IMG/VR virus record: IMGVR_UViG_3300028241_000164
Source: a virus
Strand: one strand, 5' to 3'
DNA length: 37,591 bases
The number at the start of each line of letters is the position of its first letter. The stretch's first letter is position 1. The translations under genes and the position numbers were made by a program. The notes under the pieces were generated by a model. It worked only from the letters and a program-made list of their open reading frames with translations, was not told where the DNA came from and made no database searches. Below are positions 2,890 to 34,113 of this stretch, piece by piece.

Positions 2890-3564
2890 TCACCATAATT
2901 TCATTTGCGCCTTTACTGCGTTCAGCCGTTCATTCGCTGCCTTGTAATAGTCCTCGTCTAACTCAAAGCCCCAATATTCAAAGCCCATATTGTGGCAGGC
3001 AATCAGCGAGGATGCAGAACCAACGTGTGTGTCAAGGATTTTGTCGCCTTGCTTTGCGTAGTTCATCAGTAGCCATTCGTAGAGTTTGACGGGCTTTTGC
3101 GTCGGGTGTATTTTATTCTCACCTTGCGGGTTATTAAGGTATCCAAAACCTATCCAGTCGTAGGTAAATCGCCGCAAAATACAGTTAAACGACGTCCACG
3201 CGAGTTCACCATCTGAAAAATTTGTATTGTTTGCATTGGTTATTTTTTTATCCCAAAATACCCATCCTTTTTTTGCGGGCAATAGGTCGGCAAAGTAATT
3301 TCCACCCCATATAATTTGATTTTTTGATACTCTTTGAAGTGCATCAAAATATTTCCGTGGCGGTCTTTTGGTATCCCATTGTTTTTTTTCGTGATGCTGT
3401 ATGCTTGAAAAGGTGCTTGCTTTTCCCGATTTCCCCACTACCGTTGTATTTCCGTCAACGCCTATCCCATACGGCGGGTCAACAATAGCCAACTCAAAAT
3501 ACTTATCGGGGAACTGTGCCATACCGTCCATGCAGTCCATGTTGTAAAAGCCGCTGTCGAGCAT
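2890..3564 (-). CDS. DNA N6-adenine-type methyltransferase (MTase 2), paralog of 32167..32775
   Basis: Motifs FYNMDCMDGM, DPPYG, HPTQKPVKLYEWLL and DTHVGSASS. Start set to ATG 3564 (RBS GAAAGGGG) because a promoter sits inside the longer track ORF. Confidence 0.9.
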   Translation of the reverse strand: MLDSGFYNMDCMDGMAQFPDKYFELAIVDPPYGIGVDGNTTVVGKSGKASTFSSIQHHEKKQWDTKRPPRKYFDALQRVSKNQIIWGGNYFADLLPAKKGWVFWDKKITNANNTNFSDGELAWTSFNCILRRFTYDWIGFGYLNNPQGENKIHPTQKPVKLYEWLLMNYAKQGDKILDTHVGSASSLIACHNMGFEYWGFELDEDYYKAANERLNAVKAQMKLW

Positions 3565-3595
3565 ATTTTCGCCCCTTTCAATTTCGTCTGCACTA

Positions 3596-3624
3596 ATAGT
3601 AGCAAATCGAAATAGCATTGTCAA
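3596..3624 (-). promoter_or_regulatory. sigma70-type promoter for MTase 2 (TTGACA-17-TACTAT)
   Basis: Minus-strand TTGACA (3624..3619), exact 17-nt spacer, TACTAT (3601..3596). It lies about 30 nt upstream of ATG 3564. Confidence 0.6.
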
Positions 3625-4967: not shown

Positions 4968-7900
4968 TTGGAAAGACCGTTCACCATAACCGTTAGTTCC
5001 ACAGGTGCCGTTACGCCTACCGTTATCCCCAAGGCAGGGGTTTCCGGTGAGCATAACGCCACCACGCTGAACTATTCCCTTGCGATTCCCGAAACGGGGA
5101 TTTATAAATACAACATCGAAATCCAAAGCGGCCTCGGTGAAGCCTATCTTTCGGAGTTTATCACTCCGTCCGACGGTGCAACCCGCGTCGTTTCGTTTTC
5201 CATTCCTTCCGCAATTACCCGTATGGGCGCTGCGGACTTTTGCCTTATCGAAACCAAGGTTGACGCACTCGGTGAAATCATTTCCATCACCAAAAGCGCG
5301 ATGACACGCTGTATCTTCACCGCTTCCCCCAATTCTCTTGATGACCTTGAAACATCTTATTCCGGCTTGCTGCAAGGACTTCTTTCCGACGTGGAAAACA
5401 TCTATGATGCCATTGAGGAAATGATTGCCAATGCCGGGCTGTACTTCAACCGCCCGAACTTCATCTTTGACACGCTTGCGGAAGCCCTTGCCTATACCGG
5501 CGACGGCTATATCATAGGCTCCACTGTTCAGACACGCGGCTACTATGTGGCCGGAGATAACGGCGGCGCTTTGTACGAAATCAAGGCCAATGACACGCCT
5601 GATGGCATCTTTTCCTACGAAATCAACAATGACCTTATGCTCTCGATTATCATTGAGAACAACGAGGTTCGCGTAGACCAACTCGGGGCCAAGAAAGACG
5701 CGGTTCATAACGAACCCACAGCCGGCGACCTTGCGACACTTTCTGATTACTTCACTTATTGCGACGCTGAACTCGCGTTGAACGCTTCTGCCTTTGACGG
5801 GAACGCAGCCATCATCGAAGCGGCCCTGCTTGAAGTCGGCAAGGTGACATTCACCCCCGGCGAAGTCTACCCGATTACCAATCTCCATACAACCTATGCG
5901 ATTGATGTGCCGTCCAACGTTACGATTGACGGCTGCGGAGCATACCTGAAACATATTTCGAAAGCGCACTATAACACGTTTTATATCAGCGTCAAAAACA
6001 ACGTTGTTATCAAGAATATCAACTTTATCGGTACAGTTTATGACTACACGTCGGCTGCCGAAAATAAAGCGATTAAAATGGTCAACTGCTCCAACATTAC
6101 GATTGACCGCGTTCGCATTATTGACTACGTAGAAGGAATCAAAACGCAGCAATCTTCGGGTTCTATTACAGACGAAACCCTATGCAATACCGGCATATCA
6201 ATTACCGATTGCCGCATTGAGCGCGTCATTCAGGGTTGGCAAGCGAACGCACTTATCAACTCGACAATTTCAAATCTCTATATTTCCTGCAAAATCAACG
6301 AACTTGTCGGGCAGAACGACGAGAGTTTAGAGGCCCCAATTTACTCCTACGGGGTTGGGAACCATTGTATCTATGCCGGTTCCCATATCCGAAACTGTCA
6401 ATTCAGCAACCTTGTGCTGCGCGACGCATATCGAGGAAGTGCGTTCAAGAGAGAATACGCTTCCACACCCTCCGATGAATCGGGAAATATCTCTATGGCA
6501 AACTTCTCGATTTATAACTGCCGTACCGCCATCTACCTTGGCAACGCGACGGACGGATGCACCATCACCAACGTCACGGCCTATAAGGTTCGGGTTGGAA
6601 TCCTTCTGTCATTTTGCAAAAATATCACGATTGACAACTGCGTATTCACGACCTACAAGGAGGATGACCTGCCGACCACGGAAATCAACGGAACCAATTA
6701 TCCAATTCCATTTGACAGAATCGGCGGACAAATCAATTACTATGCCTGTATGGCCTTGGGCGCGTCGGAGAACGTTAAGGTTTCCAACTGCCTGTTTGAT
6801 ACACACCATTGTTTGATTTACAAGATTGACCCTACACCTGAAACCCTGTACGTCTATGCGACGCACGACAAGACCTCCGATGACTATTCCTCAATATGGG
6901 CTGACGGAAATGCAAGCCAATGGACGCTTACTTCGCAGATAGCCGGAAGGCTTACCTTCACAAGGTATTGGAGGAACCTTCCCGATATGCCCGCGACGGG
7001 AACCCTGACGCACGTCAGCGGCGCTACCAATACGGGGAATATTACCTATACCGATGTTGACATCATAAGGCCGCATACGGTTGAAGATATTCAGTTCTTT
7101 AACTGCGATTTCAGGCTTGAAAAAGTCTATAACAATTCTATCACAGCCGGACTTCTCCCCTTTGCCGGAACCTATATCACGGACAAACTTTTGTTCGACG
7201 GCTGCCGGTTCTTCATCGAAGGATTCGGAGCATATCCCCTTGCCGGCGACTTCATTACTCCGAAAACCACAGGTGAAATGGCGACGGAACTCTCCGCGCT
7301 TTCTACTGCTGACAGGTACTCCTTCCTATTCTTCTTTGGAAATAACACAGCCAACAGGGAGCGGGACTACTTTACATCGTTTAAGAACTGCCGGTTCGAG
7401 AGTGCCGTTGAAATCAACAGCGTGTTCGTTGACTATGCAAGGCGGACATCACTTCATTTGAAGGTCGAAAATTGCACACTGAAAGGATTCCGCCTGATTG
7501 CGAGGCGTTCAACGCAGGCGGGTGTTCCGCGCAGCGATACCTACGATGCGCAAAAGAACCCCGCGTTCTCAACTTATCCTACTAACTTTGAGGCCCATTC
7601 GATTTATATGGATTCCCTTGACCGGTTCCTTTCGTCCGGGAATATCTATGAGGACTACTCCGGCCTTCGTCCGTATCAGTTCGCTGAAAGTTACGGAATA
7701 AGCAATCTGCCGGTCTACAATGACATCACCATCAACGCTGTTAGTTTGCGTCCGGGAGCATCCCCGCCTTCTTTCGTTGAGTTCGTGACTGGGATATATC
7801 AGATTGCTTTTGTCAATGGAAACACGGATATTGTTTATGGCAGTTTTGAAATCCCACACGGATATAAAGAGGGTACTGATTTAGAGGTTCATATTCATTG

Positions 7901-8213
7901 GTCGCCGTCGTCTACCGATACGGGCAACTGCGTTTTCAACTTTGACTACACCATTGCCAATATGGGAACGGGTGTGTTCGGCGCGGCAGCGCAGAAAACC
8001 CTAACGGCTGCCGGTTCGGGTGTTGCTTTGCAGCACCAATACGCTACGGGCAATACCGCCATTGACGGTGACGATATAAAAATCGGTGACGTTATCGTGT
8101 TCGCATTGTCACGTCCTGCCGGTGACGCATTTACAGGCGATGCATTTCTACATTCTATCGGCCTACATTATGAGTGCGACACGCTTGGAAGCCGCGCTCC
8201 GTCGCAGAAATGA
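4968..8213 (+). CDS. tailspike / tail fibre with right-handed beta-helix (pectate-lyase-like) depolymerase domain (1081 aa)
   Basis: TTG start, 8 nt after GGAGG. Repeated beta-helix rungs (NNVVIKNINFIGT, CSNITIDRVRIID, ISITDCRIERV, CQFSNLVLRD, CTITNVTAY, NITIDNCVF, VKVSNCLF). Confidence 0.75.
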   Translation: MERPFTITVSSTGAVTPTVIPKAGVSGEHNATTLNYSLAIPETGIYKYNIEIQSGLGEAYLSEFITPSDGATRVVSFSIPSAITRMGAADFCLIETKVDALGEIISITKSAMTRCIFTASPNSLDDLETSYSGLLQGLLSDVENIYDAIEEMIANAGLYFNRPNFIFDTLAEALAYTGDGYIIGSTVQTRGYYVAGDNGGALYEIKANDTPDGIFSYEINNDLMLSIIIENNEVRVDQLGAKKDAVHNEPTAGDLATLSDYFTYCDAELALNASAFDGNAAIIEAALLEVGKVTFTPGEVYPITNLHTTYAIDVPSNVTIDGCGAYLKHISKAHYNTFYISVKNNVVIKNINFIGTVYDYTSAAENKAIKMVNCSNITIDRVRIIDYVEGIKTQQSSGSITDETLCNTGISITDCRIERVIQGWQANALINSTISNLYISCKINELVGQNDESLEAPIYSYGVGNHCIYAGSHIRNCQFSNLVLRDAYRGSAFKREYASTPSDESGNISMANFSIYNCRTAIYLGNATDGCTITNVTAYKVRVGILLSFCKNITIDNCVFTTYKEDDLPTTEINGTNYPIPFDRIGGQINYYACMALGASENVKVSNCLFDTHHCLIYKIDPTPETLYVYATHDKTSDDYSSIWADGNASQWTLTSQIAGRLTFTRYWRNLPDMPATGTLTHVSGATNTGNITYTDVDIIRPHTVEDIQFFNCDFRLEKVYNNSITAGLLPFAGTYITDKLLFDGCRFFIEGFGAYPLAGDFITPKTTGEMATELSALSTADRYSFLFFFGNNTANRERDYFTSFKNCRFESAVEINSVFVDYARRTSLHLKVENCTLKGFRLIARRSTQAGVPRSDTYDAQKNPAFSTYPTNFEAHSIYMDSLDRFLSSGNIYEDYSGLRPYQFAESYGISNLPVYNDITINAVSLRPGASPPSFVEFVTGIYQIAFVNGNTDIVYGSFEIPHGYKEGTDLEVHIHWSPSSTDTGNCVFNFDYTIANMGTGVFGAAAQKTLTAAGSGVALQHQYATGNTAIDGDDIKIGDVIVFALSRPAGDAFTGDAFLHSIGLHYECDTLGSRAPSQK

Positions 8214-8626: not shown

Positions 8627-9430
8627 ATGAAGGTATCTACCGTTGAATTATCCGCAGACTTCAAGGAAATCATCATCTTGGCAATAGGCGACCTCCACGA
8701 AGGCGACAGATTATCAGACGGAACGCTCCTGAAAGACAGGCTGAACTTCATTAAGAAAACCGACAACTGTTTTGTAATGCTCCTTGGCGACCTGATTGAC
8801 AACGCACAACCCGACAGCCCCGGAAAGAACTCCGCTTGGTATGGGCGTCCGCACGAACAAATGGAATATATGGCTGAAACCCTGCTTCCGATTAAAGATA
8901 AGATTATTGGAGCGGTAGACGGGAACCACGAAGCGAGAACGGCGAAACACGGATTTGACATCACGGCCGTTATGCTTGGAAAAGTCGGAGTACCCCTGAC
9001 GAGATACAGCCCGGATGGACTCTATACATTCCTGAACTTCGGGCAGGAAACTCGTCCCGACAACAAAGGCGGAAGGAGAAAAATCCCGTATCAGATTTAT
9101 ATGAACCACGGAACAGGCGGCGGAAAGACAGCCGGAGGAAAGGTGAACCCGCTTTATGGGATGAAGGATATTGTCGCGGCAGACTTATACATCAGGGGAC
9201 ATACGCATCTTCCGGCAGGACTTCCGGGAATTGTCTTACAGCCCGATTGCAGAAACCACACCATCATCGAAAAGCCCGTATTCTATATCTCTGTTGCTTC
9301 ATCCTGCAAGTATGGCGGCTATGGTGAAACAGGTTCCTACACTCCATTGAGCAACGCCACGCCTTATGTTTACCTGTGCGGAACACGAAAGGCAATGGAC
9401 ATCGACTACGGCGTTCGCCGGACATTTTAA
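8627..9430 (+). CDS. calcineurin-like metallophosphoesterase
   Basis: Full motif set: GDLHEG, LLGDLID, DGNHE, NHGTGGG, GHTH. Confidence 0.85.
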   Translation: MKVSTVELSADFKEIIILAIGDLHEGDRLSDGTLLKDRLNFIKKTDNCFVMLLGDLIDNAQPDSPGKNSAWYGRPHEQMEYMAETLLPIKDKIIGAVDGNHEARTAKHGFDITAVMLGKVGVPLTRYSPDGLYTFLNFGQETRPDNKGGRRKIPYQIYMNHGTGGGKTAGGKVNPLYGMKDIVAADLYIRGHTHLPAGLPGIVLQPDCRNHTIIEKPVFYISVASSCKYGGYGETGSYTPLSNATPYVYLCGTRKAMDIDYGVRRTF

Positions 9431-21916: not shown

Positions 21917-24900
21917 ATGGCCGTCAAAAAGAAAAAGCCCATAAGCCACTATGCTGGCGTTATGGCGCAGCAGGGCGCACAACCGAAGTCTACTGCAACC
22001 CGTGAACAGATAAATAGAATGGCAGATACAATCACCGCTCTTAACAGGAAGAACGGTGTTACTGCTGCGCCTGTTCAGACTACTGTTACCCCCGCTCCGG
22101 CCAAGCATCAATATACAAAGACGGGTGGATTTTCAGGTGGACCGTCGGGTAGTGGTGGTGGTGGTTGGGGTGATTCCACTCCGATATTTTCATACTCAAT
22201 GGACAGGAGAAAGTTGCCGAATGGAGAGATTGACACTACTGGTATGTCTAATGCGGAAATTAAGATAGAGGGAATCTATCGTGACTTTCTGACGTGGGCT
22301 GAAAAAATATATGCGAAAGCGGTTGTGAAAAAAAACAAAGAATTTAACCAATACCGCGAATGGATGGGTGTGGAGCCTAATACATATACGGTTGATGTTG
22401 TTAAAGATGTAATGACTTCCAAAAATTATCAAGAGATTGTAGCCGACAGAAACCAATGGAAACAAAAAGCACAAAACATTATGGAAAAACAGGCGGCAAA
22501 CAGCAAGGCGTATTCCGCTGCCCTGTCCATCGGTTCAGGATTGGAGGCAGGGACTAAAAACGCCATTGCGGGAATGACGCGAACATACGGAGTTGATACC
22601 GAAGTTTACGGAATCAATACCGTACAGGATTACGGTGTTATGGAGGCGGCCAATGCAGTTGCTTCCGCTGATGATACCGTGTTTCAGAAGGTATCCGGAA
22701 CTGTTCTCAACGCAGTTGGCAATATGATACCCTCTATTGTTGCCGGATATTTAACGGGCAGTAACGCCCTCGGTTCGGCCATTATGGGATTGCAAACCGC
22801 AGAGGGTACCTATAACCGTGCCCGTATAGAAGGTAAAAGTCACGACGAGGCCAAGTCTTACGGGATTTTAGTCGGCGCAAGCGAAGCCGCATTTCAATAC
22901 ATTCTCGGCGGAATACCAGGTGTCAGCAGCGGATTGGTTAGTAAAATAACATCGAAGCCGTTACAGTTTATTCTCAAATATACAGATGATGTATTAAAAC
23001 TGTCTGCGAAAAATCCTGCTTGGCAAGCCGTTGTTAAGGCAATGGGAAAAGCAACGGGCCGTATGGCGGGTGAGGCGCTTGAAGAAGGGTTGCAGGAATA
23101 CATTGACGCGGCGCTTCGTTATACTTTCTTTGACGAAAGCCCGGAAGGTGGTATATTCGGAGTTGGCGTTAAAGGAATGGGCCTGTTCGGAAGGGCGGGT
23201 TATTCGGCGTTTATCGGCGCTCTTACGGCGGGGCTTTTAGGCGGAACACAGGTAATAAATGATTATACTTCCGAGAAAGTAGATGCGACGGTCAAGCGTG
23301 ATACTGTATCGGACGCGGAGTTTGAAGCACAAACCGCAAAAGAAAATGCGGAGTCCGCTACTGAATCAGAAGATGATGTTCAAGATGTAGCCGAGGATGC
23401 GGTGATTGATAACGCGGAGCAAATCGTTGACCGCATTACGCTTGAAGGCACCGAGAAACTCATTCAGAAATGGGAGCAGGGTACTTACGAGGGTGTAGAT
23501 TTAGAGAACGCACAGCAGAAACTTGAAGGATTATATCAGCAGCGCGCCGAACTGCAACAGAAACTCCAAGAGGGCAAGCGCGTCAAAGGAAAACTTGCCG
23601 CAGTTGAAGGGCGGATTACCGACGCACAGGCGATGCTTGAAGCAATGAATCAGTATCCGGCCCGCGTTGTGGCAGACTTAAAACAAAAGATTGCAGAACT
23701 GGAATCCAAGGCGGCAGAAAATCCCGATGTTTCTGAAAATCCCGATGCTATTGAAACGGCAAACGAAGAACTGGCGAAATACCAAAAGATACAGAAACTT
23801 CTTAAACGTCGCATATCTCTTAACAAGAAAATCAAGGTAGCCGAGGATATTGCCAAAGCCAAAGCCGACCTTGAAGCGGGAAACATCACAGAGGCGGAGT
23901 ATGCAAACATAATGCGTACTGCGAATAATGTTGATGTGGCGAAAGCGCGGGCTGAAATCGAGAAAATCACCAATGCCATTTACGAGGCCCTGAATGGCTC
24001 TAAAAGCGATTTTGCTCCACAGAGTGAAATTACCCCACCTACGGCTGAAACTGCGACAGGCGAAGCCACAGCCGAAGCACCGGTGCAAAACGAGGCAGTT
24101 CAGGAAACCGCAGCAAAGGAAGTTGTGCCTGAAACAGTTGAGGAAGTTCCCGCTAAAACGGCAAAAACCCCCGCCGAACCCATTACCACAGAACAGGAAG
24201 GCGAAATCATACGGATTGCCAAGAAGCACTTCGGCGTTACGGTGGAGTTTGTCGATTCGCTTGACGGCAACCGAGGTTCTGTCACGGGATTGCGTGTTAA
24301 ACTTGCGCGTGATGCCAATAACGGCTATGATGCGTTTCTCTATACGCTCGGGTGCGAAGTGACGCATACCCTTGAAGGCACAAAGCAGTATGAGAAACTC
24401 AAAGGCTTATTGAGAACGATGCGCGGCTCCAAAGAGTTTGCGCGTGACGTGAACCTGCGTATGGACGCACAGCCTGATATGACACAGGCACAGGCAGAGG
24501 CAGAGATTGTCACGCAGATTGCTGGCGAGAAACTCTTTAATCCCGATACCATTTCTCGGATGGAAAACAAAGGGCTTATAACGAAAATCTTGAACATCCT
24601 TCGGAATCTCAAAGAAAAGATGCGCAAAGGGGCATACGAACAGCAGATTACACGGGTGATTGAGGCGTATCAGAAGGCTTTAAGGAAACAATCACCTACA
24701 AAGACTACCCTGTATGAATCGGGGCTTGACGAACTGAACAGACGCGCCAATGAACCCGGTACCGTCATCAAAAAGAAAGGCGTAGACGCTGTTCGTGACG
24801 TGAGCGTTCCCGAATTTACCAAGACAGGGCGCAGGGTACCGAACCTTGCGAGAACAATGGTGGAGGCCGGAAGCCTGACTGACGAGAGTGTGGATGAGAT

Positions 24901-27325
24901 AGCCCACAATCTTGCTAATGATAAAATAAGTTATAAGGTAGAGCATAATGCCGATGCTATTGTCAAGGGCGACAAGATGTACGGGGACTTGTCGCGCGAA
25001 AACGCATACCGCAGGGGACGGTCGCTGCTTAATTCAGGCAAACTTCCGTCGCCGGCACAGGCGGTATTCCTTCAACGTGTCCTTCAACAGTTGGCTGACG
25101 AAGTGGCTACCAACCCGTCGGGTACGAACCGTGTTGACTTTATGGAGTTTGCCACAGATTTAATGGCTCTCTCGACGAAGGCGGGGCAGTATGCACAGGC
25201 GCAGTCAATACTTAAAAAACTCACCAATGCCGGACGCGCTATGGTGTACATGAAGTTCGTCGAGAACATCAACAATGATTCTATATACCAAAACAAAATA
25301 TCTAAAGGCAAGATGGCGGAAGTCACTATCGACCAAGCGTTGATTGATAAACTGCTTGCTGCGAAAGGCGAGGATATTGTCAAGGTCGAAGATGAAATCG
25401 CGCAGCATATCGCAGACCAAGTTCCGGCAACCTTTATGGAAAAACTCAATGCGTTCAGATACCTTTGTATGTTGGGCAGCCTGAAAACGCAGGGCGGGAA
25501 CATCTTCGGCAACGTATCAATGCTTGGAATGGTCGTTGCGAAGAATACTATCCAAAAAACCATACAGGATATTGCCGTCAAGACGTCCAGCCATAAGACG
25601 ATGACGTGGAAGTTCAGCAAGGAGTTGTTCTCTTTTGCAATCAACGACTTCCGCACCCACAAGAAGGCTGCAATGGGCGAATCGAAATACAACGATGTCA
25701 ACCCGATGTTCGATATTTTGAGCAAGCGTCAAATTATGTGGAAGCCTATTGATAAACTCTATAAAGGCGTTCAGCACGGTATGGAATACTTCGACGAACG
25801 CTTTGCGGAACTTCATTATTCCACCACGCTCGAAAGTTATCTTGGTTCCCACAAGTTGACACCGCAGATGATAAATGACGCGGCGGCCAATATGGAGCGC
25901 TATGATGCCGATACCCCAGAGGGAAAAAAGGCCCGTGAGATAATGCAAACGCTCAATGCGGGCCGTAGTTTCGCCATCAAACAAGCGCAGAAGGCTACCT
26001 TCCGCAATGAAAGTAGGGCGGCGAATTGGCTTGCGGTAGGCTCCCGTATCCGTGGCGTGAATGTCGTCATCAATGGCTTGATTCCGTTCCGCAAGACTCC
26101 TATCAATATTATTGCGCGAGGCGTGGAATACAGCCCCGTGGGGTTGCTTTACAATGCCGCAAGGGTGATGACCGGAAGTGTGCAACGCGGAAGTATGGAC
26201 TTCACGGAAGCGCTTGACCGCACTTGCTCGGGACTGTCCGGCAGCGCGATTGCGATGTTCGGCGCCTATATGATGGCCAAGGGGCTTATAAAGTTAGGTG
26301 ATGACGACGAACTCAAAAATGTAGCCAAAGCCAAAAAGCAAATGGGCGAACAGAAATATACCGTAATGATAAAAGGTAAAGACGGCGAGTATGTGCGCGT
26401 CGATATGGGATGGCTCTCCCCTGTCTGTATGCCGTTCTTCTTGGGCGCAGAACTCTATCGCGGAATTACAAGTGAGGGAAATATATCAGCCTCCGAAATA
26501 ATGGAAGCGATTACCAACATACCGCAGCCCGTCTTTGACCTTTCCCTGCTGCAAGGTATCAACAAGGCCCTTGGAGATATTCGATACGAGGACGAAGATA
26601 AGGAGTTGCAGACTGTCCTGCTTGGAGCCGCCACCAACCTTGTCAATCAGTTTGTGCCTACGATTCTCGGACAGATTGCAAGAACCTTTGATGGAACCCA
26701 AAGAACCGTCTATACAACCAAAGACGGGTGGAAGGGCAAGTGGCTTACCGAGAATATGCAGCGGCAGATTCAGGAAATCCAAATGAAGATTCCGGGATTG
26801 TCGAAGTGGATGGAGCCTAACCTTGATATATGGGGAAGGACGCAAGAAACCGACGGCTACCTATACCGTGGATTCCAAAATCTTGTGTCACCGGCCAACA
26901 TCTACATACCAAAGGATGACAAAGTGACGCAGACGCTTATCGACTTGACGACAAAGGTGCGTGGCGTGGCAAATGAATACCCGATGCCGCAGCAAGTGTC
27001 GCAGGACACGATGGACAAGTACCATCTCACCCCCGAAGAAATGACCAAACTGAAAAAGGCCGTAGGTCAAGCGCAGTATAAGGCCGCAAAAGATTTCATT
27101 GACAACGGCGTGAAGATAGGGTATGATAAGAAGAACCCCCGAAACAAATCGGGACGCGGTAACGCACACGGCAACGTAACGATGGGTACATTCAGGAATA
27201 ATTCCAATGGGTTATACACAGACGATGAACTTCGTGCAAAGGCCGCAAAGTCGGTTATGGAAAAGGCTTACAAGCAAGCCTTTGATGATATGCTTGCTTC
27301 TATTCAGGCAACAAAGAAAAGGTAA
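21917..27325 (+). CDS. giant multidomain virion protein (1802 aa; ejection / polyvalent-type)
   Basis: Last gene of the late operon. It has Gly-rich and small-residue hydrophobic segments, a long acidic coiled coil, a low-complexity PTAETATGEATAEAP region, and a large C-terminal part with hydrophobic helices. Confidence 0.5.
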   Translation: MAVKKKKPISHYAGVMAQQGAQPKSTATREQINRMADTITALNRKNGVTAAPVQTTVTPAPAKHQYTKTGGFSGGPSGSGGGGWGDSTPIFSYSMDRRKLPNGEIDTTGMSNAEIKIEGIYRDFLTWAEKIYAKAVVKKNKEFNQYREWMGVEPNTYTVDVVKDVMTSKNYQEIVADRNQWKQKAQNIMEKQAANSKAYSAALSIGSGLEAGTKNAIAGMTRTYGVDTEVYGINTVQDYGVMEAANAVASADDTVFQKVSGTVLNAVGNMIPSIVAGYLTGSNALGSAIMGLQTAEGTYNRARIEGKSHDEAKSYGILVGASEAAFQYILGGIPGVSSGLVSKITSKPLQFILKYTDDVLKLSAKNPAWQAVVKAMGKATGRMAGEALEEGLQEYIDAALRYTFFDESPEGGIFGVGVKGMGLFGRAGYSAFIGALTAGLLGGTQVINDYTSEKVDATVKRDTVSDAEFEAQTAKENAESATESEDDVQDVAEDAVIDNAEQIVDRITLEGTEKLIQKWEQGTYEGVDLENAQQKLEGLYQQRAELQQKLQEGKRVKGKLAAVEGRITDAQAMLEAMNQYPARVVADLKQKIAELESKAAENPDVSENPDAIETANEELAKYQKIQKLLKRRISLNKKIKVAEDIAKAKADLEAGNITEAEYANIMRTANNVDVAKARAEIEKITNAIYEALNGSKSDFAPQSEITPPTAETATGEATAEAPVQNEAVQETAAKEVVPETVEEVPAKTAKTPAEPITTEQEGEIIRIAKKHFGVTVEFVDSLDGNRGSVTGLRVKLARDANNGYDAFLYTLGCEVTHTLEGTKQYEKLKGLLRTMRGSKEFARDVNLRMDAQPDMTQAQAEAEIVTQIAGEKLFNPDTISRMENKGLITKILNILRNLKEKMRKGAYEQQITRVIEAYQKALRKQSPTKTTLYESGLDELNRRANEPGTVIKKKGVDAVRDVSVPEFTKTGRRVPNLARTMVEAGSLTDESVDEIAHNLANDKISYKVEHNADAIVKGDKMYGDLSRENAYRRGRSLLNSGKLPSPAQAVFLQRVLQQLADEVATNPSGTNRVDFMEFATDLMALSTKAGQYAQAQSILKKLTNAGRAMVYMKFVENINNDSIYQNKISKGKMAEVTIDQALIDKLLAAKGEDIVKVEDEIAQHIADQVPATFMEKLNAFRYLCMLGSLKTQGGNIFGNVSMLGMVVAKNTIQKTIQDIAVKTSSHKTMTWKFSKELFSFAINDFRTHKKAAMGESKYNDVNPMFDILSKRQIMWKPIDKLYKGVQHGMEYFDERFAELHYSTTLESYLGSHKLTPQMINDAAANMERYDADTPEGKKAREIMQTLNAGRSFAIKQAQKATFRNESRAANWLAVGSRIRGVNVVINGLIPFRKTPINIIARGVEYSPVGLLYNAARVMTGSVQRGSMDFTEALDRTCSGLSGSAIAMFGAYMMAKGLIKLGDDDELKNVAKAKKQMGEQKYTVMIKGKDGEYVRVDMGWLSPVCMPFFLGAELYRGITSEGNISASEIMEAITNIPQPVFDLSLLQGINKALGDIRYEDEDKELQTVLLGAATNLVNQFVPTILGQIARTFDGTQRTVYTTKDGWKGKWLTENMQRQIQEIQMKIPGLSKWMEPNLDIWGRTQETDGYLYRGFQNLVSPANIYIPKDDKVTQTLIDLTTKVRGVANEYPMPQQVSQDTMDKYHLTPEEMTKLKKAVGQAQYKAAKDFIDNGVKIGYDKKNPRNKSGRGNAHGNVTMGTFRNNSNGLYTDDELRAKAAKSVMEKAYKQAFDDMLASIQATKKR

Positions 27326-27679: not shown

Positions 27680-27819
27680 CCTGCTACAACTGCGACAATA
27701 AAATTAAAGAAGGGGATTTCTACGCCGTATTCAAGAACCCCGATACCGAGGTTGAGATTGTCATTTGCGAGGACTGCAAGGAGAACGCATATTATTTTCA
27801 GAAAGAAGGGGATGAATAA
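27676..27819 (+). CDS. zinc-ribbon mini-protein (47 aa)
   Basis: TTG start 8 nt after AGGAGG. CYNC...CEDC gives a CxxC-N27-CxxC arrangement. The stop overlaps the Rad52-like start. Confidence 0.5.
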   Translation: MTCYNCDNKIKEGDFYAVFKNPDTEVEIVICEDCKENAYYFQKEGDE

Positions 27820-28349
27820 TGGACATAAGAACATTGCGCGCTGACGAAATCGACTGCCGTGTTCAGAGCGTTAAGCGGGGGAAGAATGACGTGGGAGCGG
27901 TGCTGCTGCTATACAAGGATGCCCGCGCCGATATGAAGATTCTTGATGAAACCTTCGGAATCTTCGGCTGGACAAGAGAGCATATCGAAATAGGTGGCAA
28001 TATGTTTTGCACCATCAAGGTCAGAAACCCGGATACCGGCGAATGGATTGCCAAGCAGGATGTCGGCACCGAGAGCAACGAGGAAAAGCAAAAAGGCGAA
28101 GCATCCGATTCATTCAAGCGGGCAGCCACCAACATCGGAATCGGAAGGGAACTCTACACTTCTCCGTTCATTTGGGTAATCCTTGACAAGGGAGAATACT
28201 ATGAGAAGGACGGCAAGTTGAGGGCATCGCCTTCCTTGAAGTTCATCGTGTCGGAGATTTCCTATTCCAAAGACCGGGTGATTGACAAGTTGATGCTGAA
28301 AGACGGCAAGGGACAGGCAAGGTTTACATTCTACAATAAGGAGAAATGA
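27819..28349 (+). CDS. Rad52/Sak-type single-strand annealing protein
   Basis: LLLYKDARADMKILDETFG..GW, DVGTES...KGEASDSFKRAATNIGIGRELY. Confidence 0.85.
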   Translation: MDIRTLRADEIDCRVQSVKRGKNDVGAVLLLYKDARADMKILDETFGIFGWTREHIEIGGNMFCTIKVRNPDTGEWIAKQDVGTESNEEKQKGEASDSFKRAATNIGIGRELYTSPFIWVILDKGEYYEKDGKLRASPSLKFIVSEISYSKDRVIDKLMLKDGKGQARFTFYNKEK

Positions 28350-28351
28350 CA

Positions 28352-28759
28352 ATGCAATTCGTAATCGGAAAAAACGCAGAGGGCGAAACTCTCATTGGCC
28401 TTGTGGGGTATGTCGGCTCCGAACCTGAAAGACGGACGACTGACAATGGTACAAGCATCCTGAACTTCGGTATGGTGATTGACTACCGCAAGGGTGCTGA
28501 CGGCACAGGCAAATCCGTTTGGGCCAATGTGGTGGCCTTCAATCAGGTCGGCAATAAGCGTGTCGAAAAGGGCGACGATGTGTTCGTCACCGGCAGGGTT
28601 CAGGAGTACACCTATTCCGACAGGGATGGCGTGGAGCAGAAGAAAAAAAAAGTGGTGGCTGATGCCATTATCGTTTCCGCCAATGCGCCCGTCAGTTTTG
28701 CTCCCGCAGCAAGCAAGTACGATATTCCGGCGGCCGAGGAAGAAGACTTACCGTTTTGA
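28352..28759 (+). CDS. ssb: single-stranded DNA-binding protein
   Basis: OB-fold pattern and acidic C-terminal tip EEEDLPF. Start set to ATG 28352 (8 nt after AAGGAG). Confidence 0.85.
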   Translation: MQFVIGKNAEGETLIGLVGYVGSEPERRTTDNGTSILNFGMVIDYRKGADGTGKSVWANVVAFNQVGNKRVEKGDDVFVTGRVQEYTYSDRDGVEQKKKKVVADAIIVSANAPVSFAPAASKYDIPAAEEEDLPF

Positions 28760-28770
28760 GGAGTGATAAA

Positions 28771-29325
28771 ATGAGCATCTTTGATACCATTCTCGATGAA
28801 GAACTTGAAGGCGAAATCTCCGCTGATATTCAGCAAGAGGCCGGCGAGTTCAAAGTGATGAATGACTACGACGCCAATCAGGCGGTCAAAAAAGTTAAAC
28901 TTCTCCGCAAAAATGTTGACCGGTACGAATCGGTCATCAAGCAGGAGATTGAGAATCTCAAACTGAAAGCGGCGGTGTACCGCGCACAGGCTGAAAAGAC
29001 GGTCGAGTTCTACGAGAACTGTCTGAAAATATACACGATGTCCGCTGACTGCGAAACAACCAAGACCGGCAACAGGGTTTATCGGCTCCCGGACGGGAAG
29101 TTGTGTATCAAGAAACAGGAGCCGGAGTTTGTGCGCGATGATGCTGCGTTGACCGAGTGGCTCAAAGCACACGGAGGGAAGTTCATCAAGACCACAGCAT
29201 CCCCGGAATGGGGAGAGTTCAAGAAGGTTTGCAAAACGCAGGGCGAGGTTCTTGTGGACGAGAACGGAGAGATTGTCGATGGGGTGAAAGTCATCCCAAG
29301 AGAAGAAAGGTTCGTGATTGAATGA
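28771..29325 (+). CDS. Gam-like / Gp157-like host-nuclease inhibitor family protein
   Basis: FKVMNDYDANQAVKKVKLL, a coiled coil, then YRLPDGKL..KKQEPEF.V.D...L.EWLK. Position after ssb. Start at ATG 28771 with an RBS. Confidence 0.55.
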   Translation: MSIFDTILDEELEGEISADIQQEAGEFKVMNDYDANQAVKKVKLLRKNVDRYESVIKQEIENLKLKAAVYRAQAEKTVEFYENCLKIYTMSADCETTKTGNRVYRLPDGKLCIKKQEPEFVRDDAALTEWLKAHGGKFIKTTASPEWGEFKKVCKTQGEVLVDENGEIVDGVKVIPREERFVIE

Positions 29326-29966
29326 TTGCAAAGATATTGGCGGCGGGCGGCGGCGTTATTACTATCAGCGTTACCGAGGCGTACATCAACGAATTGGTGG
29401 AGGGAAATGTAAAACACCTTGAACTTTCTCCGTCAGACGGAGCCTTTATAACTGCCCCGCAGCGCCGCCATATCTTCGCAACCCTCCATGACATTGCCGA
29501 TTGGTCGGGTGAGGATAAGGATACCATTCGTCAAAATATGCGGGATGATTTTTGCGATAAAACCGAGCGCCCGACATTCTCTCTTTCCAATACCGACAAG
29601 GAAACGGCCCGTGCCTTCCTGACCTATCTGATTGACTTCTGTATCGTATGGGGCGTACCCACAAAACAGGTGCTATATGACCGCACAGAGGACATTGACG
29701 CATACCTGTATGCTTGCCTTATCAATAAGAAATGCACCTTGTGCGGCAGGGACGGTGCGCAGTTGCATCATTACGACGCAATCGGTATGGGGCGGAACCG
29801 GACGGAGATATGCCATATCGGGATGACGGGAATCTCCCTTTGCCCAGAGCATCATTCGGTTGTGGAACAGCAGGGGAAGTCCTATCTAACAGACAGGAAA
29901 CTCTACGGAATCAAGATAGATGACAAGATTGTCAAGACTTATAGATTGAGAGGTGATAATAAATGA
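29322..29966 (+). CDS. HNHc_6-type putative HNH nuclease
   Basis: ITAPQRRHIFATLHDIADWSG...FSLS...A..FL.YLIDF, then C.LCGRDGAQLHHYDAIGMGRNR...LCPEHH. Confidence 0.65.
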   Translation: MIAKILAAGGGVITISVTEAYINELVEGNVKHLELSPSDGAFITAPQRRHIFATLHDIADWSGEDKDTIRQNMRDDFCDKTERPTFSLSNTDKETARAFLTYLIDFCIVWGVPTKQVLYDRTEDIDAYLYACLINKKCTLCGRDGAQLHHYDAIGMGRNRTEICHIGMTGISLCPEHHSVVEQQGKSYLTDRKLYGIKIDDKIVKTYRLRGDNK

Positions 29967-30211
29967 CGGAAGTGGAGCGCGTTCACAGCGCCCGCGAGAT
30001 GCTTAACCGAATCAAGGATGCAAGGGACTATGCAAAAGAGGGATTCGTGCTGATTCAGGGGATGAACAAGGCCGACACGACGGGGAAATGGTTGGTCGAA
30101 GTGGCGGTATCCCGGCTTGAAGAAGCGTTTGAAACGGCTGACGATTTTTATAGGGAAACCCTGAAAGATGTCGAAAATATTCGCAAGCGCAGAAAGGGGA
30201 AGTTATTTTGA
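29963..30211 (+). CDS. hypothetical protein (82 aa)
   Basis: RBS AGAGGTGA. ATGA overlap with the upstream gene. Confidence 0.6.
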   Translation: MTEVERVHSAREMLNRIKDARDYAKEGFVLIQGMNKADTTGKWLVEVAVSRLEEAFETADDFYRETLKDVENIRKRRKGKLF

Positions 30212-30606
30212 AAAACAGATTCAAGCCGGAGGACTGTATCTCAACGGGAGAAACCTATGCCGCTTCGCGCCCGGAGATTATTGCGGCAACAGGATACTGC
30301 GATTCCTATGTCAGGCAACATATCGGCAAGCAAAGGGAAACAGAGGTCATTCTCAACCTATGGAACGGACGCGGATACTTCAAGCCGACCGATGCCGACG
30401 AGGAAGCCGTACTGAAATACTTCCTTCGCGAACACGCCGCAGCAGTCACAAGGATTGCGCGTACAAAGACGGCCCGGAAATGGCTTGAACTTCATTCCAA
30501 CTATTCCTTTGAAGATTACACGCCTGAACTCAAAGTCTATGCGCTGCCGGCCGAGGATAAGATATATATGATGCGCGATGGCAACTTGGTGGAGATGACG
30601 GAATGA
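30208..30606 (+). CDS. hypothetical protein (132 aa)
   Basis: TTG start after AAAGGGGAAG. Coupled to its neighbours. Confidence 0.55.
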   Translation: MKNRFKPEDCISTGETYAASRPEIIAATGYCDSYVRQHIGKQRETEVILNLWNGRGYFKPTDADEEAVLKYFLREHAAAVTRIARTKTARKWLELHSNYSFEDYTPELKVYALPAEDKIYMMRDGNLVEMTE

Positions 30607-30998
30607 GAGTTATCAGGATTAACGCCGAAGCCGTCGGGAAGCAATCTCCCTTATGGGGAAACGGACATTCTTATCTTCCGGCCAAGACCGCTGATTTCCA
30701 AAAACTTGTGGCATGGGAGTACGTCCGGCAGGGCGGTGAGAACTTCGGAAAAAACGCTATCAGCATCGTGCTGCATATCGAAAAGGGATTCCCAAAATCC
30801 TATTCCAAGGCCAAGCGTGACAAGTTGCGTAGCCAAATATGCACCGAGAAACCCGACTGCTCCAACGTATTGAAGGCAATCGAGGACGGGTTGCAGGGCG
30901 TGGCGTTCGACAATGACAAGCAAGTGGTATTCGTGAGTATGAGCAAGCGGTGGACGGACGAATCCTGCATCGTCTTGAAGGTGGAGCCGATACTATGA
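30603..30998 (+). CDS. rusA: RusA-family Holliday junction resolvase
   Basis: KPDCSNVLKAIEDGLQGVAFDNDKQVV is the RusA catalytic-region pattern. Confidence 0.85.
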   Translation: MRVIRINAEAVGKQSPLWGNGHSYLPAKTADFQKLVAWEYVRQGGENFGKNAISIVLHIEKGFPKSYSKAKRDKLRSQICTEKPDCSNVLKAIEDGLQGVAFDNDKQVVFVSMSKRWTDESCIVLKVEPIL

Positions 30999-31120
30999 TT
31001 TGGCTGAACAACATAATTCTATTCGCGTTTTGCAGGCAGACGAACAACCCCGAACAACTCAAACGAACCGCAAAGGAACAGCGGGATTTTTATAAGGCGC
31101 AGATGAGGAAAAAGAAGTGA
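30995..31120 (+). CDS. hypothetical mini-protein (41 aa)
   Basis: The ATG overlaps the rusA stop, and its stop overlaps the next GTG start. It fills the gap exactly. Confidence 0.4.
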   Translation: MIWLNNIILFAFCRQTNNPEQLKRTAKEQRDFYKAQMRKKK

Positions 31121-31758
31121 ACACAGAATATCATAAAATCAAATCACTTTATAGGCGCGATATGGAAGGCACAAAGCGGCTTATTGAAGGCGCGTATGCC
31201 AACGAACTGGTGGAGTATCTCAAAGACAATCAATGGATTTTCACCGAGAAGGTTGACGGAACGAATATCCGCGTCGTTTGGGATGGTCACAAGGTTGAGT
31301 TCTTCGGTAGAACAGATAAGGCGCAGATACCGGCCCATCTTATGACGAAACTGATGTCCCTTTTCTATGGAGAGGAAAACGCACAGGTTTTCGAGCAGTT
31401 ATTTGGAGAGAGAGAGGCCGTGATTTACGGAGAGGGATATGGCCCGAAGATTCAGGCCGGGGGAGAGAAGTATTCTTCCGAAGCACAATTCATCGCATTT
31501 GATGTTAAGGTGAGTGACATTTTCCTTGAACGAGAGGCGGCGGAGGTTATTGCAGAGGCCCTGAATATTCCTATGGTTCCCATCATCCTTATCGGTAGTA
31601 TCGGCGAGGCTGTTTCGTATGTTAAATCAAAACCATTATCACAGGTAGCCGCACAGGAGCGGGAAATGGAAGGGTTGGTCGGCGTACCGGCGCGCAGAAT
31701 CTATGATGTTTTGGGCGGAAGGGTTATCGTTAAAATAAAGGGGTGTGATTTCGATTGA
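31117..31758 (+). CDS. ATP-dependent RNA ligase family protein (Rnl2/DRB0094-like nucleotidyltransferase)
   Basis: Motif I EKVDGTN, III VIYGEGYG, IIIa FIAFDV, IV MEGLVGV, V VIVKIKG. GTG start. Confidence 0.7.
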   Translation: MNTEYHKIKSLYRRDMEGTKRLIEGAYANELVEYLKDNQWIFTEKVDGTNIRVVWDGHKVEFFGRTDKAQIPAHLMTKLMSLFYGEENAQVFEQLFGEREAVIYGEGYGPKIQAGGEKYSSEAQFIAFDVKVSDIFLEREAAEVIAEALNIPMVPIILIGSIGEAVSYVKSKPLSQVAAQEREMEGLVGVPARRIYDVLGGRVIVKIKGCDFD

Positions 31759-32153
31759 TTATCCCCGCAATGAATGGCAAGACGATGCCTAAAAAGGTTG
31801 CCTATTCATCAGATGAACGGAAGCCGCTTGTCATTGCCGTTGACTTCGATGGTACGCTATGCGAGAACGCTTGGCCCGTCATTGGCGCTCCTAAACGTGA
31901 GATGATTCGCCTGATGATTGCTCGGAAGCGTATGGGTGACAAGATTGTTCTTTGGACGTGCCGGGAAGATGAATCGCTTGACTTTGCCGTTCAATGGTGT
32001 GCCTCCCACGGCCTGTACTTCGACGCGGTGAACGCGAATCTTCCGGAGGAACAGGAGAAATGGCAATCGAATCCCCGTAAAATCGGAGCGGACATTTACA
32101 TCGACGACAAGGGGTTAAATCCGCAGAACATTCCTGAATGGTGGTTTGACTGA
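31755..32153 (+). CDS. HAD-superfamily phosphatase (DxDGT type)
   Basis: Motif I VDFDGTL, motif II LWTCR, motifs III/IV RKIGADIYIDDKG. The start (TTG 31755 or ATG 31770) is uncertain. Confidence 0.7.
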   Translation: MIIPAMNGKTMPKKVAYSSDERKPLVIAVDFDGTLCENAWPVIGAPKREMIRLMIARKRMGDKIVLWTCREDESLDFAVQWCASHGLYFDAVNANLPEEQEKWQSNPRKIGADIYIDDKGLNPQNIPEWWFD

Positions 32154-32166
32154 AAAGGAGCAGACA

Positions 32167-32775
32167 ATGTTACAAAGCGGCTTTTACAACATGGATTGCA
32201 TGGACGGTATGGCACAATTTCCCGATAAGTATTTTGAGTTGGCGATTGTTGACCCGCCGTATGGGTTGGAACGTTTTAAGCATGGCGGTTCAGTTATAAA
32301 CAAATATGGCGATGAAAACGGGGAATGGAATAACACAAAGCCCACAAAAGAATATTTCGATGAATTATTTAGAGTATCTCAATGCCAAATAATATGGGGC
32401 GCGAATAATTTTCAGCTTCCACCTACGGAATATTTTGTGATTTGGGATAAGTTGAACCCTGTTGATTTTAGTTTTGCAATGTGCGAAATGGCATGGACGA
32501 ACTGCAGGAAACCGGCAAAAATATATCAATGCAATTCAATGCAATTAGACCGAATTCACCCGACACAAAAGCCCGTTAAACTCTACGAATGGCTACTAAT
32601 GAACTACGCAAAACAAGGCGACAAAATCCTTGACACACACGTTGGTTCTGCATCCTCGCTGATTGCCTGCCACAATATGGGCTTTGAATATTGGGGTTTT
32701 GAATTAGACGAGGACTATTACAAAGCGGCAAGCGAACGGCTCGAAGCAGTAAAGGCACAATTAAAATTATGGTGA
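32167..32775 (+). CDS. DNA N6-adenine-type methyltransferase (MTase 3), paralog of 2890..3564 with a different central region
   Basis: Its N-terminal region (FYNMDCMDGMAQFPDKYFELAIVDPPYG) and its C-terminal region match MTase 2. Start at ATG 32167 after AAGGAG. Confidence 0.9.
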   Translation: MLQSGFYNMDCMDGMAQFPDKYFELAIVDPPYGLERFKHGGSVINKYGDENGEWNNTKPTKEYFDELFRVSQCQIIWGANNFQLPPTEYFVIWDKLNPVDFSFAMCEMAWTNCRKPAKIYQCNSMQLDRIHPTQKPVKLYEWLLMNYAKQGDKILDTHVGSASSLIACHNMGFEYWGFELDEDYYKAASERLEAVKAQLKLW

Positions 32776-32790
32776 AAGGAAACGGACGAA

Positions 32791-33120
32791 ATGATTTGGT
32801 TTTACTGTTCATCTTGCGGAGCGCAGGGGCAGATGAGCGGCGGGAATACGTGTCCGAACTGCTCCGGTGCCATAATCGAAATGGGAAGGTTCCCGGAGCG
32901 TGAAAAGGAAGTCGAGGCAAAGTTTTGCGCTGCCCTTATAGAAGAACTGATGAAACATAAAGTAGAAGTATGGGTTGAAGAAGCCTTTCATAATGGTATA
33001 GAAAATGCCGATAAGGTAACATACAAGGAGGGCTATATCATTAGTGCGCTGATACATAAACTTCAAGACATTGGCCCGCAGTACCTTGCGTTGCTTGAAA
33101 GGGGTGGCAAGAGTGAGTGA
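32791..33120 (+). CDS. hypothetical protein with N-terminal zinc ribbon
   Basis: CSSC-N10-CPNC at the N-terminus. Confidence 0.6.
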   Translation: MIWFYCSSCGAQGQMSGGNTCPNCSGAIIEMGRFPEREKEVEAKFCAALIEELMKHKVEVWVEEAFHNGIENADKVTYKEGYIISALIHKLQDIGPQYLALLERGGKSE

Positions 33121-33319
33121 CCTTACGGATGCGGCCTTTAACAGAATGGAAAAAGCAGAACGCTCAAAGGCCGAGGCCATACCGCCAAAGGAATGTGGGT
33201 ATTCCTGCGACTGCAACGATTGCAACGAGGCGTATCTATGCCAAGAGAAGTGGAACTATGACTACGAGTGCGATGCGGATTGTAGGTACTGCAACAACGA
33301 TGATTGCAAAAACAGGTGA
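33113..33319 (+). CDS. Cys-rich small protein (68 aa, 10 Cys in the last 42 residues)
   Basis: GTG 33113 follows AAAGGGGTGG. C-terminal ECGYSCDCNDCNEAYLCQEKWNYDYECDADCRYCNNDDC. Confidence 0.5.
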   Translation: MSDLTDAAFNRMEKAERSKAEAIPPKECGYSCDCNDCNEAYLCQEKWNYDYECDADCRYCNNDDCKNR

Positions 33320-33369
33320 CATTCTCAAAATCGGCATTTTGCGAAACTCATGAAAGAAGGGAAAAGACA

Positions 33370-34113
33370 ATGAACAAGACAAAAATCGACTGGGCCGACA
33401 GCACTTGGAACCCTGTTACCGGGTGTCTGAACGATTGCCCATACTGCTATGCGAAAAAGATTTCCACAAGGTTTGATGCACATTTTTTTGCTGATAAACC
33501 AAAGGTTCTTAAATTCCCTATGCGTTCAAATCAAGGAATTATATATCCATATCCCTATGGCTTTACGCCGACTTTTCACAGATACCGCCTTGACGAACCC
33601 GCACAAAAGAAAAAGCCACAGAATATCTTCGTTTGCTCAATGGCTGATTTGTTCGGGGACTGGGTGCCGATAAGTTGGATTAAGGATGTGCTGACCGCTT
33701 GTTACAAAGCACCGTGGCACAATTACCTATTCCTGACGAAAAACCCGCAGCGCCTCATTGACATGGGAAAGCAAGGACTACTCCCCGCCAAAGAGAACTA
33801 CTGGTACGGAACGACCATCACGGACGACGCGACGCCGTTCTTCTATTCCGAAGCGCACAACTGCTTTTTATCAATCGAGCCACTGATGGGCGCGTTCGGA
33901 GAGGACGGAAAACTGCCGCCCGCCATCAAATGGGTAATCATCGGCGCAGAAACAGGAAACCGCAAAGGCAAGGTTATTCCCCAAAAGGAATGGATTGAGA
34001 GCATTGTTGATGTCTGCCGCGATTTTGGAACGCCTGTGTTTATGAAAGAATCACTGCGTGAACTGATGGGCGACGATTCTAAACAGGAGTTTCCGGAGGG
34101 GCTGAAACGATGA
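33370..34113 (+). CDS. DUF5131 (phage Gp37/Gp68) family protein with CX3CX2C motif
   Basis: TKIDWADSTWNPVTGCLNDCPYCYAKK is the family N-terminal signature. Start at ATG 33370 with an RBS. Confidence 0.75.
   Translation: MNKTKIDWADSTWNPVTGCLNDCPYCYAKKISTRFDAHFFADKPKVLKFPMRSNQGIIYPYPYGFTPTFHRYRLDEPAQKKKPQNIFVCSMADLFGDWVPISWIKDVLTACYKAPWHNYLFLTKNPQRLIDMGKQGLLPAKENYWYGTTITDDATPFFYSEAHNCFLSIEPLMGAFGEDGKLPPAIKWVIIGAETGNRKGKVIPQKEWIESIVDVCRDFGTPVFMKESLRELMGDDSKQEFPEGLKR

Follow-up and report, generated by a model that had tools for sequence, protein, structure and literature searches.

Adjacent RNA-ligase-family and HAD phosphatase genes in a phage recombination operon are probably two independent accessory genes

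Two small overlapping genes lie at the end of a recombination and replication operon in the virus record IMGVR_UViG_3300028241_000164, a phage or prophage segment of 37,591 nucleotides (nt) that is called the window here and is meant at its full length. The first gene encodes a protein of the RNA-ligase superfamily (the ligase, below) and the second a phosphatase of the HAD type (the HAD, below). A preliminary description of this DNA had proposed the two genes as a candidate RNA-repair module. The pair is encoded on the + strand, and the open reading frames (ORFs) and the operon that holds them are as follows.

31117..31758, + strand: ligase ORF with a GTG start, 213 residues; the Lys45 codon is at 31249..31251
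31755..32153, + strand: HAD ORF with a TTG start, 132 residues; the codons of motif I (DFDGT) begin at 31842
27819..32153, + strand: recombination/replication operon, delimited from ORF coordinates, sequence and Pfam matches; it is the context of the pair, not a two-gene module

The gene order in the operon is Rad52-like, SSB, Gam, HNHc_6, orf82, orf132, RusA, an ORF of 41 residues, ligase and HAD. Its nine consecutive junctions, which run from Rad52-like (27819) to HAD (32153), each consist of a 4-nt start/stop overlap of the form ATGA, GTGA or TTGA. The stretch 27819-32153 is, in its own right, an unusually long series of translationally coupled genes. That the HAD gene overlaps the ligase gene by 4 nt had been pointed out before, and the coordinates above confirm it; this overlap (TTGA) is the last of the nine. 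Because all nine junctions in the operon overlap by 4 nt, the ligase/HAD overlap belongs to the translational-coupling style of the whole operon and is not diagnostic of a module. The start codons on which these coordinates depend are backed by several signals. A Shine-Dalgarno sequence, GAGGA, lies 7 nt before the GTG of the ligase, whose homologues begin M-x-x-EYHKI, while the TTG of the HAD follows AAGGGG 11 nt upstream. The HAD N terminus reads MIIPAMN, and the pattern M(I/N)IP(A/M)M is conserved in the four closest homologues. Since both this conservation and the AAGGGG sequence favor the TTG start, they also favor the 4-nt TTGA overlap.

The assignment of the 213-residue protein to the ATP-dependent RNA-ligase family of nucleotidyltransferases (NTases) holds. 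The protein matches PF09414 RNA_ligase (E = 2.3e-17; 64.1 bits against a cut-off of 27; profile positions 2-171 of 171) and phrog_548 'RNA ligase' (E = 1e-21), and the five motifs that had been listed occur in order as K45-VDGTN, Y103-GEGYG, F125-IAFDV, E185-GLVGV and K206-IKG. In an alignment of 30 homologues (56-90% identity, 209-221 residues), the invariant positions are K45, D47, G48, T49, N50, R65-T66, G105-E106-G107, F125/F128/D129, E185-G186 and K206/K208, and nucleotidyltransferase motifs I, Ia, III, IIIa, IV and V are all invariant. The AlphaFold (AF2) model reaches a predicted local distance difference test (pLDDT) value of 87.5, and its closest fold in the PDB by Foldseek is the NTase domain of T4 Rnl2 (1s68, E = 4e-10), followed by Naegleria Rnl5, with DNA ligases far behind. 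When the family profile is compared with the PDB, Rnl2 (7e-7) and NgrRnl (1.6e-3) are found as well. The invariant motifs and the predicted fold suggest that the enzyme is catalytically intact.

Two characterized types of RNA ligase offer the nearest points of comparison, and neither fits completely. The NTase domain of T4 Rnl2 (1s68/2hvq) is the best match in both sequence and fold (query TM-score, TMq, 0.68-0.72), with an identical order of motifs I, Ia, III, IIIa, IV and V and with the lysine nucleophile ~35-45 residues from the N terminus; 44 residues precede Lys45 in the window protein. However, the two are ~19% identical, and the window protein does not have the C-terminal all-helical domain of Rnl2: it ends 5 residues past motif V, and the accessory domain is absent. 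Its score against the Rnl2 model TIGR02307 is 26.7 bits, where the cut-off is 197. The Rnl5 clade (Deinococcus DraRnl and Naegleria NgrRnl, PDB 5cot) is also similar, in that the ligase aligns to NgrRnl residues 158-316 with a Foldseek E of ~1e-7, but it is missing the N-terminal OB-like module that defines Rnl5, and its TIGR02306 score is 26.2 bits (cut-off 151), from a match to only positions 153-333 of the 341 in that profile. Because it falls short of both curated equivalog models, Rnl2 and Rnl5, and lacks either accessory domain, the protein is a 'minimal', NTase-only representative of the RNA-ligase superfamily. The resemblance is to Rnl2 and Rnl5, not to Rnl1, the tRNA repair ligase of T4.

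The second ORF had been described as a HAD phosphatase with DFDGT, T and K...DD motifs, and this description is borne out. The motifs are D30-F-D32-G-T34, T68, K109 and D117-D118, and residues D30, D32, G33, T34, T68, K109, D117 and D118 are invariant among 31 homologues. The protein matches NCBIfam NF046079 'BT0820 family HAD-type phosphatase' (E = 3.7e-27; 95.3 bits, which is below the 165-bit equivalog cut-off), phrog_24386 and phrog_1238 (1e-31 to 1e-36), and PDB 2obb (sequence E = 2.3e-21; Foldseek E = 3e-9, 39% identity); there is no Pfam match at E<=0.1. Its relative BT0820 from Bacteroides thetaiotaomicron (2obb) shares 39% identity across the HAD core, along with the same capless fold and catalytic motifs, but the window HAD scores under the equivalog cut-off and carries an N-terminal extension of 25 residues. 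These N-terminal ~25 residues are lineage specific and are predicted with low confidence. The 132-residue protein is therefore a predicted capless (C0) DxDGT HAD phosphatase of a subfamily related to BT0820, and not a proven equivalog.

This phosphatase had also been described as of the same catalytic type as the 3'-phosphatase domain of T4 Pnkp. The superfamily and the cap type do agree: T4 Pnkp and the window HAD have DxDGT capless HAD chemistry in common, and an ATP-dependent ligase is encoded in the same phage in both cases. Membership in the Pnkp family is not borne out, because neither Pfam nor the comparison with Pnkp chains in the PDB returns a profile match. Foldseek places the HAD near T4 Pnkp 2ia5 with a probability of 0.95-0.98 and a TM-score of ~0.41, values that reflect the general capless-HAD fold. 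The PHROG polynucleotide kinase (PNK) profiles match residues 10-92 only (3e-5 and 3e-4), and a PDB search with the HAD family profile retrieves no Pnkp chain, even at E<=10. Judged by its sequence, the HAD is not a member of the Pnkp family.

Co-occurrence across phage genomes had been set beforehand as a test of the module. Ligase loci were taken from IMG/VR (80) and GTDB (80), around homologues of 42-60% identity in both cases, and from GenBank phages (4), and 162 of these are ligase positive, including 78 of the 80 from GTDB. A further 80 IMG/VR loci were collected around HAD homologues. The IMG/VR loci were found by alignment-based scans, whereas single-sequence scans with either protein found nothing. 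With the HAD profile, all 162 loci were negative for a BT0820-like HAD within +-10 kb of the ligase homologue, even when hits at E<=10 were admitted. The same profile does find gp45 of A511 (6e-27) and a crAss HAD (1e-16). In the opposite direction, the HAD loci were searched with a narrow hidden Markov model, with phmmer and with a jackhmmer profile that spans the Rnl2-like A511 gp47, and a PF09414-like ligase was found in one of the 80 (L191), where it is truncated and located 5 kb from the HAD. Because co-occurrence amounts to 0/162 and 1/80 loci, the view that the pair constitutes a conserved RNA-repair module is not supported: the two genes essentially fail to co-occur in other genomes.

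Within this lineage, the history of the arrangement can be partly reconstructed. The order RusA, ligase, HAD recurs only in the sister contigs L165-L168, in which the ligase is 90% and the HAD 86% identical. Collinearity with the window extends to two additional contigs, L171 and L258 (Rad52 83%, Gam 75%, HNHc_6 77%, RusA 76% and HAD 67% identical, with orf109 at 92% in L171), but they pass from RusA to HAD without an intact ligase. Positions 2214-2336 of L258 hold the last 41 ligase codons only, which are 66% identical, retain motifs IV and V ('...EGIVGVP...VIVKIKGCDFD') and end at the HAD start. L258 thus represents a ligase deletion caught in the act, in which an intact HAD has been retained. 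The 41-codon remnant beside the HAD shows that the ligase-HAD arrangement was ancestral in this small clade and that the ligase was later deleted while the HAD was kept. The next-closest ligases (66% and 65%) have other neighbors and no HAD. On the other side of the pair, the methylase and DUF5131 also come and go independently among close relatives. This region is a mosaic whose accessory genes are separable.

The 41-residue ORF between RusA and the ligase (30995-31120) has a 59%-identical homologue elsewhere in the collinear contig L171 (6280-6411), and it appears to be a small mobile gene.

Outside this lineage, the ligase family is abundant in phages, where it forms at least 1932 clusters at 90% identity of domain-minimal proteins of ~210 residues. 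The ~210-residue 'RNA ligase' proteins of Streptomyces BE-cluster phages (Faust gp202 and BillNye), crAss-like phages (cr116_1 and IAS virus) and uncultured Caudoviricetes belong to the same family. They match over the full length at 33-47% identity, are of equal size, are likewise solitary among small hypothetical genes, and none of them lies beside a BT0820-like HAD. The neighborhoods of the family are diverse, since the 1662 proteins encoded within +-3 kb of a ligase fall into 1232 clusters, the largest of which is present in 11 loci. Among 107 dereplicated ligase clusters, the 104 immediate neighbors represent 61 Pfam families, none of which is seen more than 2 times; cREC_REC and Metallophos have 2 occurrences each. 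RlaP is located <=2 kb from a ligase homologue in 8 loci, often 14-15 nt upstream, and RtcB is found at <=2 kb in 6 loci. In the IMG/VR loci, 118 tRNA genes are present in 1.33 Mb of ligase flanks versus 34 in 1.21 Mb of HAD flanks, which makes them ~3x denser per kb near the ligase.

Because RlaP, RtcB and cREC appear as neighbors and the flanks are rich in tRNA genes, it is plausible that the ligase family serves RNA repair, in most cases as a gene on its own. The modular RNA-repair systems of Burroughs and Aravind, which comprise ligase, RlaP and kinase/phosphatase components, provide a framework for these observations (as cited in PMC12776372 and PMC7824862). Some members of the ligase family adjoin RlaP, RtcB, cREC or Metallophos and so fit this 'syntax', whereas the locus in the window has none of these partners. 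According to the second source, a lone ATP-dependent ligase joins only 3'-OH/5'-P ends (PMC7824862), and for this reason the natural targets of the ligase would be breaks made by metal-dependent nucleases.

The same data bear on whether the 213-residue protein joins strands at all. It could instead be an adenylyltransferase for some other acceptor, one that 5'-adenylylates nucleic acid or AMPylates protein, or it could need an unlinked partner in trans. The isolated NTase domain of Rnl2 is not known to perform the 5'-adenylylation step of nick sealing, which counts toward this idea, as do the single NTase domain without any accessory module and the lack of a conserved neighbor across the family. 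However, none of the six ligase motifs varies, not even motifs IV and V, which serve phosphodiester formation, and the associations with RlaP and RtcB fit RNA end-joining. This idea is quite improbable.

A different proposal takes its cue from the operon. Both proteins might serve DNA recombination or replication, with the HAD as a DNA 3'-phosphatase or nucleotidase and the ligase sealing nicks that have a ribonucleotide 3'-OH, such as RNA-primer/DNA junctions. The genes do share an operon with Rad52-like, SSB, Gam, HNHc_6 and RusA, other ligase loci lie among genes for SSB, PD-(D/E)XK proteins, DNA polymerase A and methylases, and the closest solved folds are the duplex nick-sealing T4 Rnl2 and the Naegleria/Deinococcus-type Rnl5. 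Yet the window protein has neither the duplex-binding C-terminal domain of Rnl2 nor the N-terminal OB-like domain of Rnl5, and the only recurrent functional partners of its family are RlaP and RtcB. Given also that the ligase is missing from collinear relatives whose recombination genes are the same, this proposal is unlikely, though somewhat easier to entertain than the preceding one.

The neighborhoods of the HAD family point in another direction. The commonest neighbors in the 80 HAD loci are DUF5131 (27), N6_N4_Mtase (25) and a radical-SAM protein (22), counts that are inflated by one abundant lineage. After dereplication, the neighbors include DNA methylases, DUF5131, DNA polymerase A, a DnaB-type helicase, RecU, a PurA-like adenylosuccinate synthetase and dGTP_diPhyd_N, and SNF2 and radical-SAM proteins are also among the contexts of the family. 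Fusions of HAD homologues to dGTP_diPhyd_N (P0193; PF18909, dATP/dGTP diphosphohydrolase N-terminal) and to DUF3310 (P0143) suggest a role in the nucleotide pool. Individual phages add further examples, with thymidylate synthase near the HAD in CampHawk, Ralstonia FLC4-11C and Sophrita, ThyX, dUTPase and RNR in Rhizobium RHph_Y65, dCMP deaminase and QueC in Yersinia CAU_YEP3, PRTase and ThyX in a crAss-like phage, and NrdD, PnuC and NadR in an Enterococcus phage. These neighbors point to a small-molecule phosphatase, probably one that acts on nucleotides, and a nucleotide phosphatase had been named beforehand among the outcomes that would speak against the module. The HAD family is as widespread in phages as that of the ligase, and its existing annotations are inconsistent ('phosphoheptose isomerase', '5'-nucleotidase' and 'polynucleotide kinase'), and no paper on the substrate of BT0820 was found in the literature searched.

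In ~22 of the IMG/VR HAD loci (L203-L244), RtcB is encoded ~5 kb downstream of the HAD on the opposite strand, and all of these loci come from one abundant lineage. This proximity was considered as a link between the HAD and repair and was rejected, because it reflects a single redundant lineage, is not operonic, and involves an enzyme that needs no 3'-phosphatase.

The proposal with which the analysis began can now be weighed in its specific form, which is a tRNA repair pathway without its own kinase. The HAD would remove the 3'-phosphate, a kinase supplied by the host or not recognized in the phage would phosphorylate the 5'-OH, and the ligase would seal the break. In its favor, the genes are adjacent and translationally coupled, the arrangement is kept in the sister phage and ancestral in the L258 lineage, the HAD is weakly similar to the phosphatase of Pnkp (the PHROG PNK matches at 3e-5 and 3e-4, and a TM-score of 0.41 to 2ia5), and HAD phosphatases are listed among RNA-repair components in the literature (PMC7824862). 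A loose proximity of ligase and HAD in phages A511 and Sophrita and an AAA_33 kinase next to a HAD in crAss-like phages, all of which are described below, are additional points of this kind.

Nevertheless, the comparative evidence runs the other way. The two families meet in 0/162 and 1/80 loci, the HAD is retained after ligase deletion (L258 and L171), the 4-nt overlap is generic to the operon, the main neighbors of the HAD family are DNA-modification and nucleotide-metabolism genes, and the ligase family elsewhere never needs a BT0820-like HAD. The well-known precedent of T4, in which Pnkp and Rnl1 repair tRNA against PrrC, differs in that the window has no kinase domain or gene and in that ligase and HAD are unlinked outside the lineage. 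No tRNA genes were found in the window. No P-loop polynucleotide kinase was found there either, in agreement with the preliminary description: there are four Walker-A matches, namely the terminase, a DnaC/IstB-like loader and two that arise by chance, so the idea of a hidden kinase was rejected. A kinase-less repair pathway built from this pair is consequently judged to be doubtful, and the claim that the two genes form an RNA-repair module is not upheld.

A possible third partner was also examined. The calcineurin-like phosphoesterase encoded at 8627-9430 had been mentioned as potentially relevant to the pair, but 22 kb separates it from them, and its surroundings are tail and lysis genes. 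It is matched by phrog_7339, which carries the label 'DNA repair exonuclease' (3.9e-27), and the PDB holds no relative of it by sequence. Nothing links it to the pair, and it was rejected as an end-healing partner. Its gene lies between a tail-spike-like gene and an M23/SH3 lysin, which is an odd site for a nucleic-acid enzyme.

The explanation we prefer, to which we assign a probability of roughly 0.6, is that the ligase and the HAD are accessory genes independent of each other, found side by side in this phage lineage alone. The ligase would belong to a large family of Rnl2/Rnl5-like NTases of ~210 residues, which phages and prophages of very different kinds carry as a single gene. Its most likely activities are self-adenylylation on Lys45 and the sealing of RNA breaks that have 3'-OH and 5'-phosphate ends, if the predicted fold and motifs are a reliable guide, and breaks of this kind would require no end healing. 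From the context of its family, the enzyme probably protects tRNA or other RNA from metal-dependent host nucleases early in infection. The genes that surround HAD homologues suggest, in turn, that the most likely substrate of the HAD is a small phosphomonoester, for instance a (deoxy)nucleotide, rather than RNA ends destined for the ligase.

Several observations weigh against the independence of the two genes or against the activities proposed for them. The arrangement predates the 90% sister and persisted for some time, as shown by the remnant in L258, whose HAD is at 67% identity. By analogy with T4 Rnl2(1-249), an NTase domain alone may not complete all ligation steps. No biochemical characterization of the ligase family, nor any biochemical data on the HAD family, was found in the literature searched. 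Moreover, PF09414 ligases and BT0820-like HADs are neighbors of a sort in two distantly related lineages. The early cluster of Listeria phage A511 (L254, 358-4203) encodes a NADAR protein (gp50), an Rnl2-like ligase (gp47; PF09414 1.4e-19), gp46, a HAD (gp45), gp44 and a Metallophos protein (gp43), and it may be a genuine cluster for RNA/ADP-ribose repair in Herelleviridae. Bacillus phage Sophrita encodes an RNA ligase 2.2 kb upstream of a BT0820-like HAD. In Bacteroides phage PhiCrAssBcn21 (L253, 2570-3923), a gene for an AAA_33 (PNK-type) kinase overlaps a distant BT0820-like HAD by 4 nt, with a phosphoribosyltransferase next and ThyX further along; this pair in crAss-like phages resembles a split Pnkp or, alternatively, a nucleotide kinase with its nucleotidase. 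These few distant lineages hint that some BT0820-like HADs (A511, Sophrita and crAss-like) could act on polynucleotide ends.

The remaining features of the window serve as context for the pair. Those downstream of the HAD gene, together with related genes near the other end of the segment, are listed here.

32167..34113, + strand: downstream context after the HAD, comprising an N6/N4 methyltransferase, two small Cys-rich ORFs and DUF5131
32167-32775, + strand: N6/N4 DNA methyltransferase (Pfam), with ATG at 32167 and an AAGGAG ribosome-binding site
33304-34113, + strand: DUF5131 (Gp37/Gp68-type, radical-SAM-like; Pfam)
1788-2519 and 2890-3624, - strand: two further N6/N4 DNA methyltransferases

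A single segment of 37.6 kb thus holds three separate N6/N4 DNA methyltransferase genes plus DUF5131, and a methylase and DUF5131 are also what most often accompanies the HAD family in other genomes. Other genes in the window encode a large terminase, a portal, the M23/SH3 lysin and the DnaC/IstB-like loader. An ORF of 1802 residues (21917-27325) has no Pfam or PHROG match, and one of 1081 residues (4968-8213) has a weak NosD/beta-helix match only; the first is probably a tail or injection protein and the second a tail spike.

Had the two genes formed a module, they would have pointed to a new kinase-less tRNA-repair counter-defense, an outcome that the comparative data do not back. What the ligase might do by itself can be put more boldly than it has been above. 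The 213-residue protein could be a self-sufficient minimal ligase, a one-gene counter-defense that directly reseals 5'-phosphate/3'-OH breaks made in tRNA or other RNA by metal-dependent defense nucleases (PIN/VapC-like and Toprim-type), to which the HAD of this lineage could add 3'-phosphate ends. We hold this extension only tentatively, although it has better prospects than any of the alternatives discussed above. If true, such a counter-defense would need neither a kinase nor a phosphatase, and we know of no characterized ligase that is as small as this protein.

As matters stand, both proteins are ordinary members of known and annotated families that are biochemically uncharacterized. Assigning a substrate to the BT0820-like HADs would tidy many annotations. 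The part most worth following is the minimal ligase family, which is a reasonable target for studies of RNA repair and anti-defense, and possibly for enzyme engineering.

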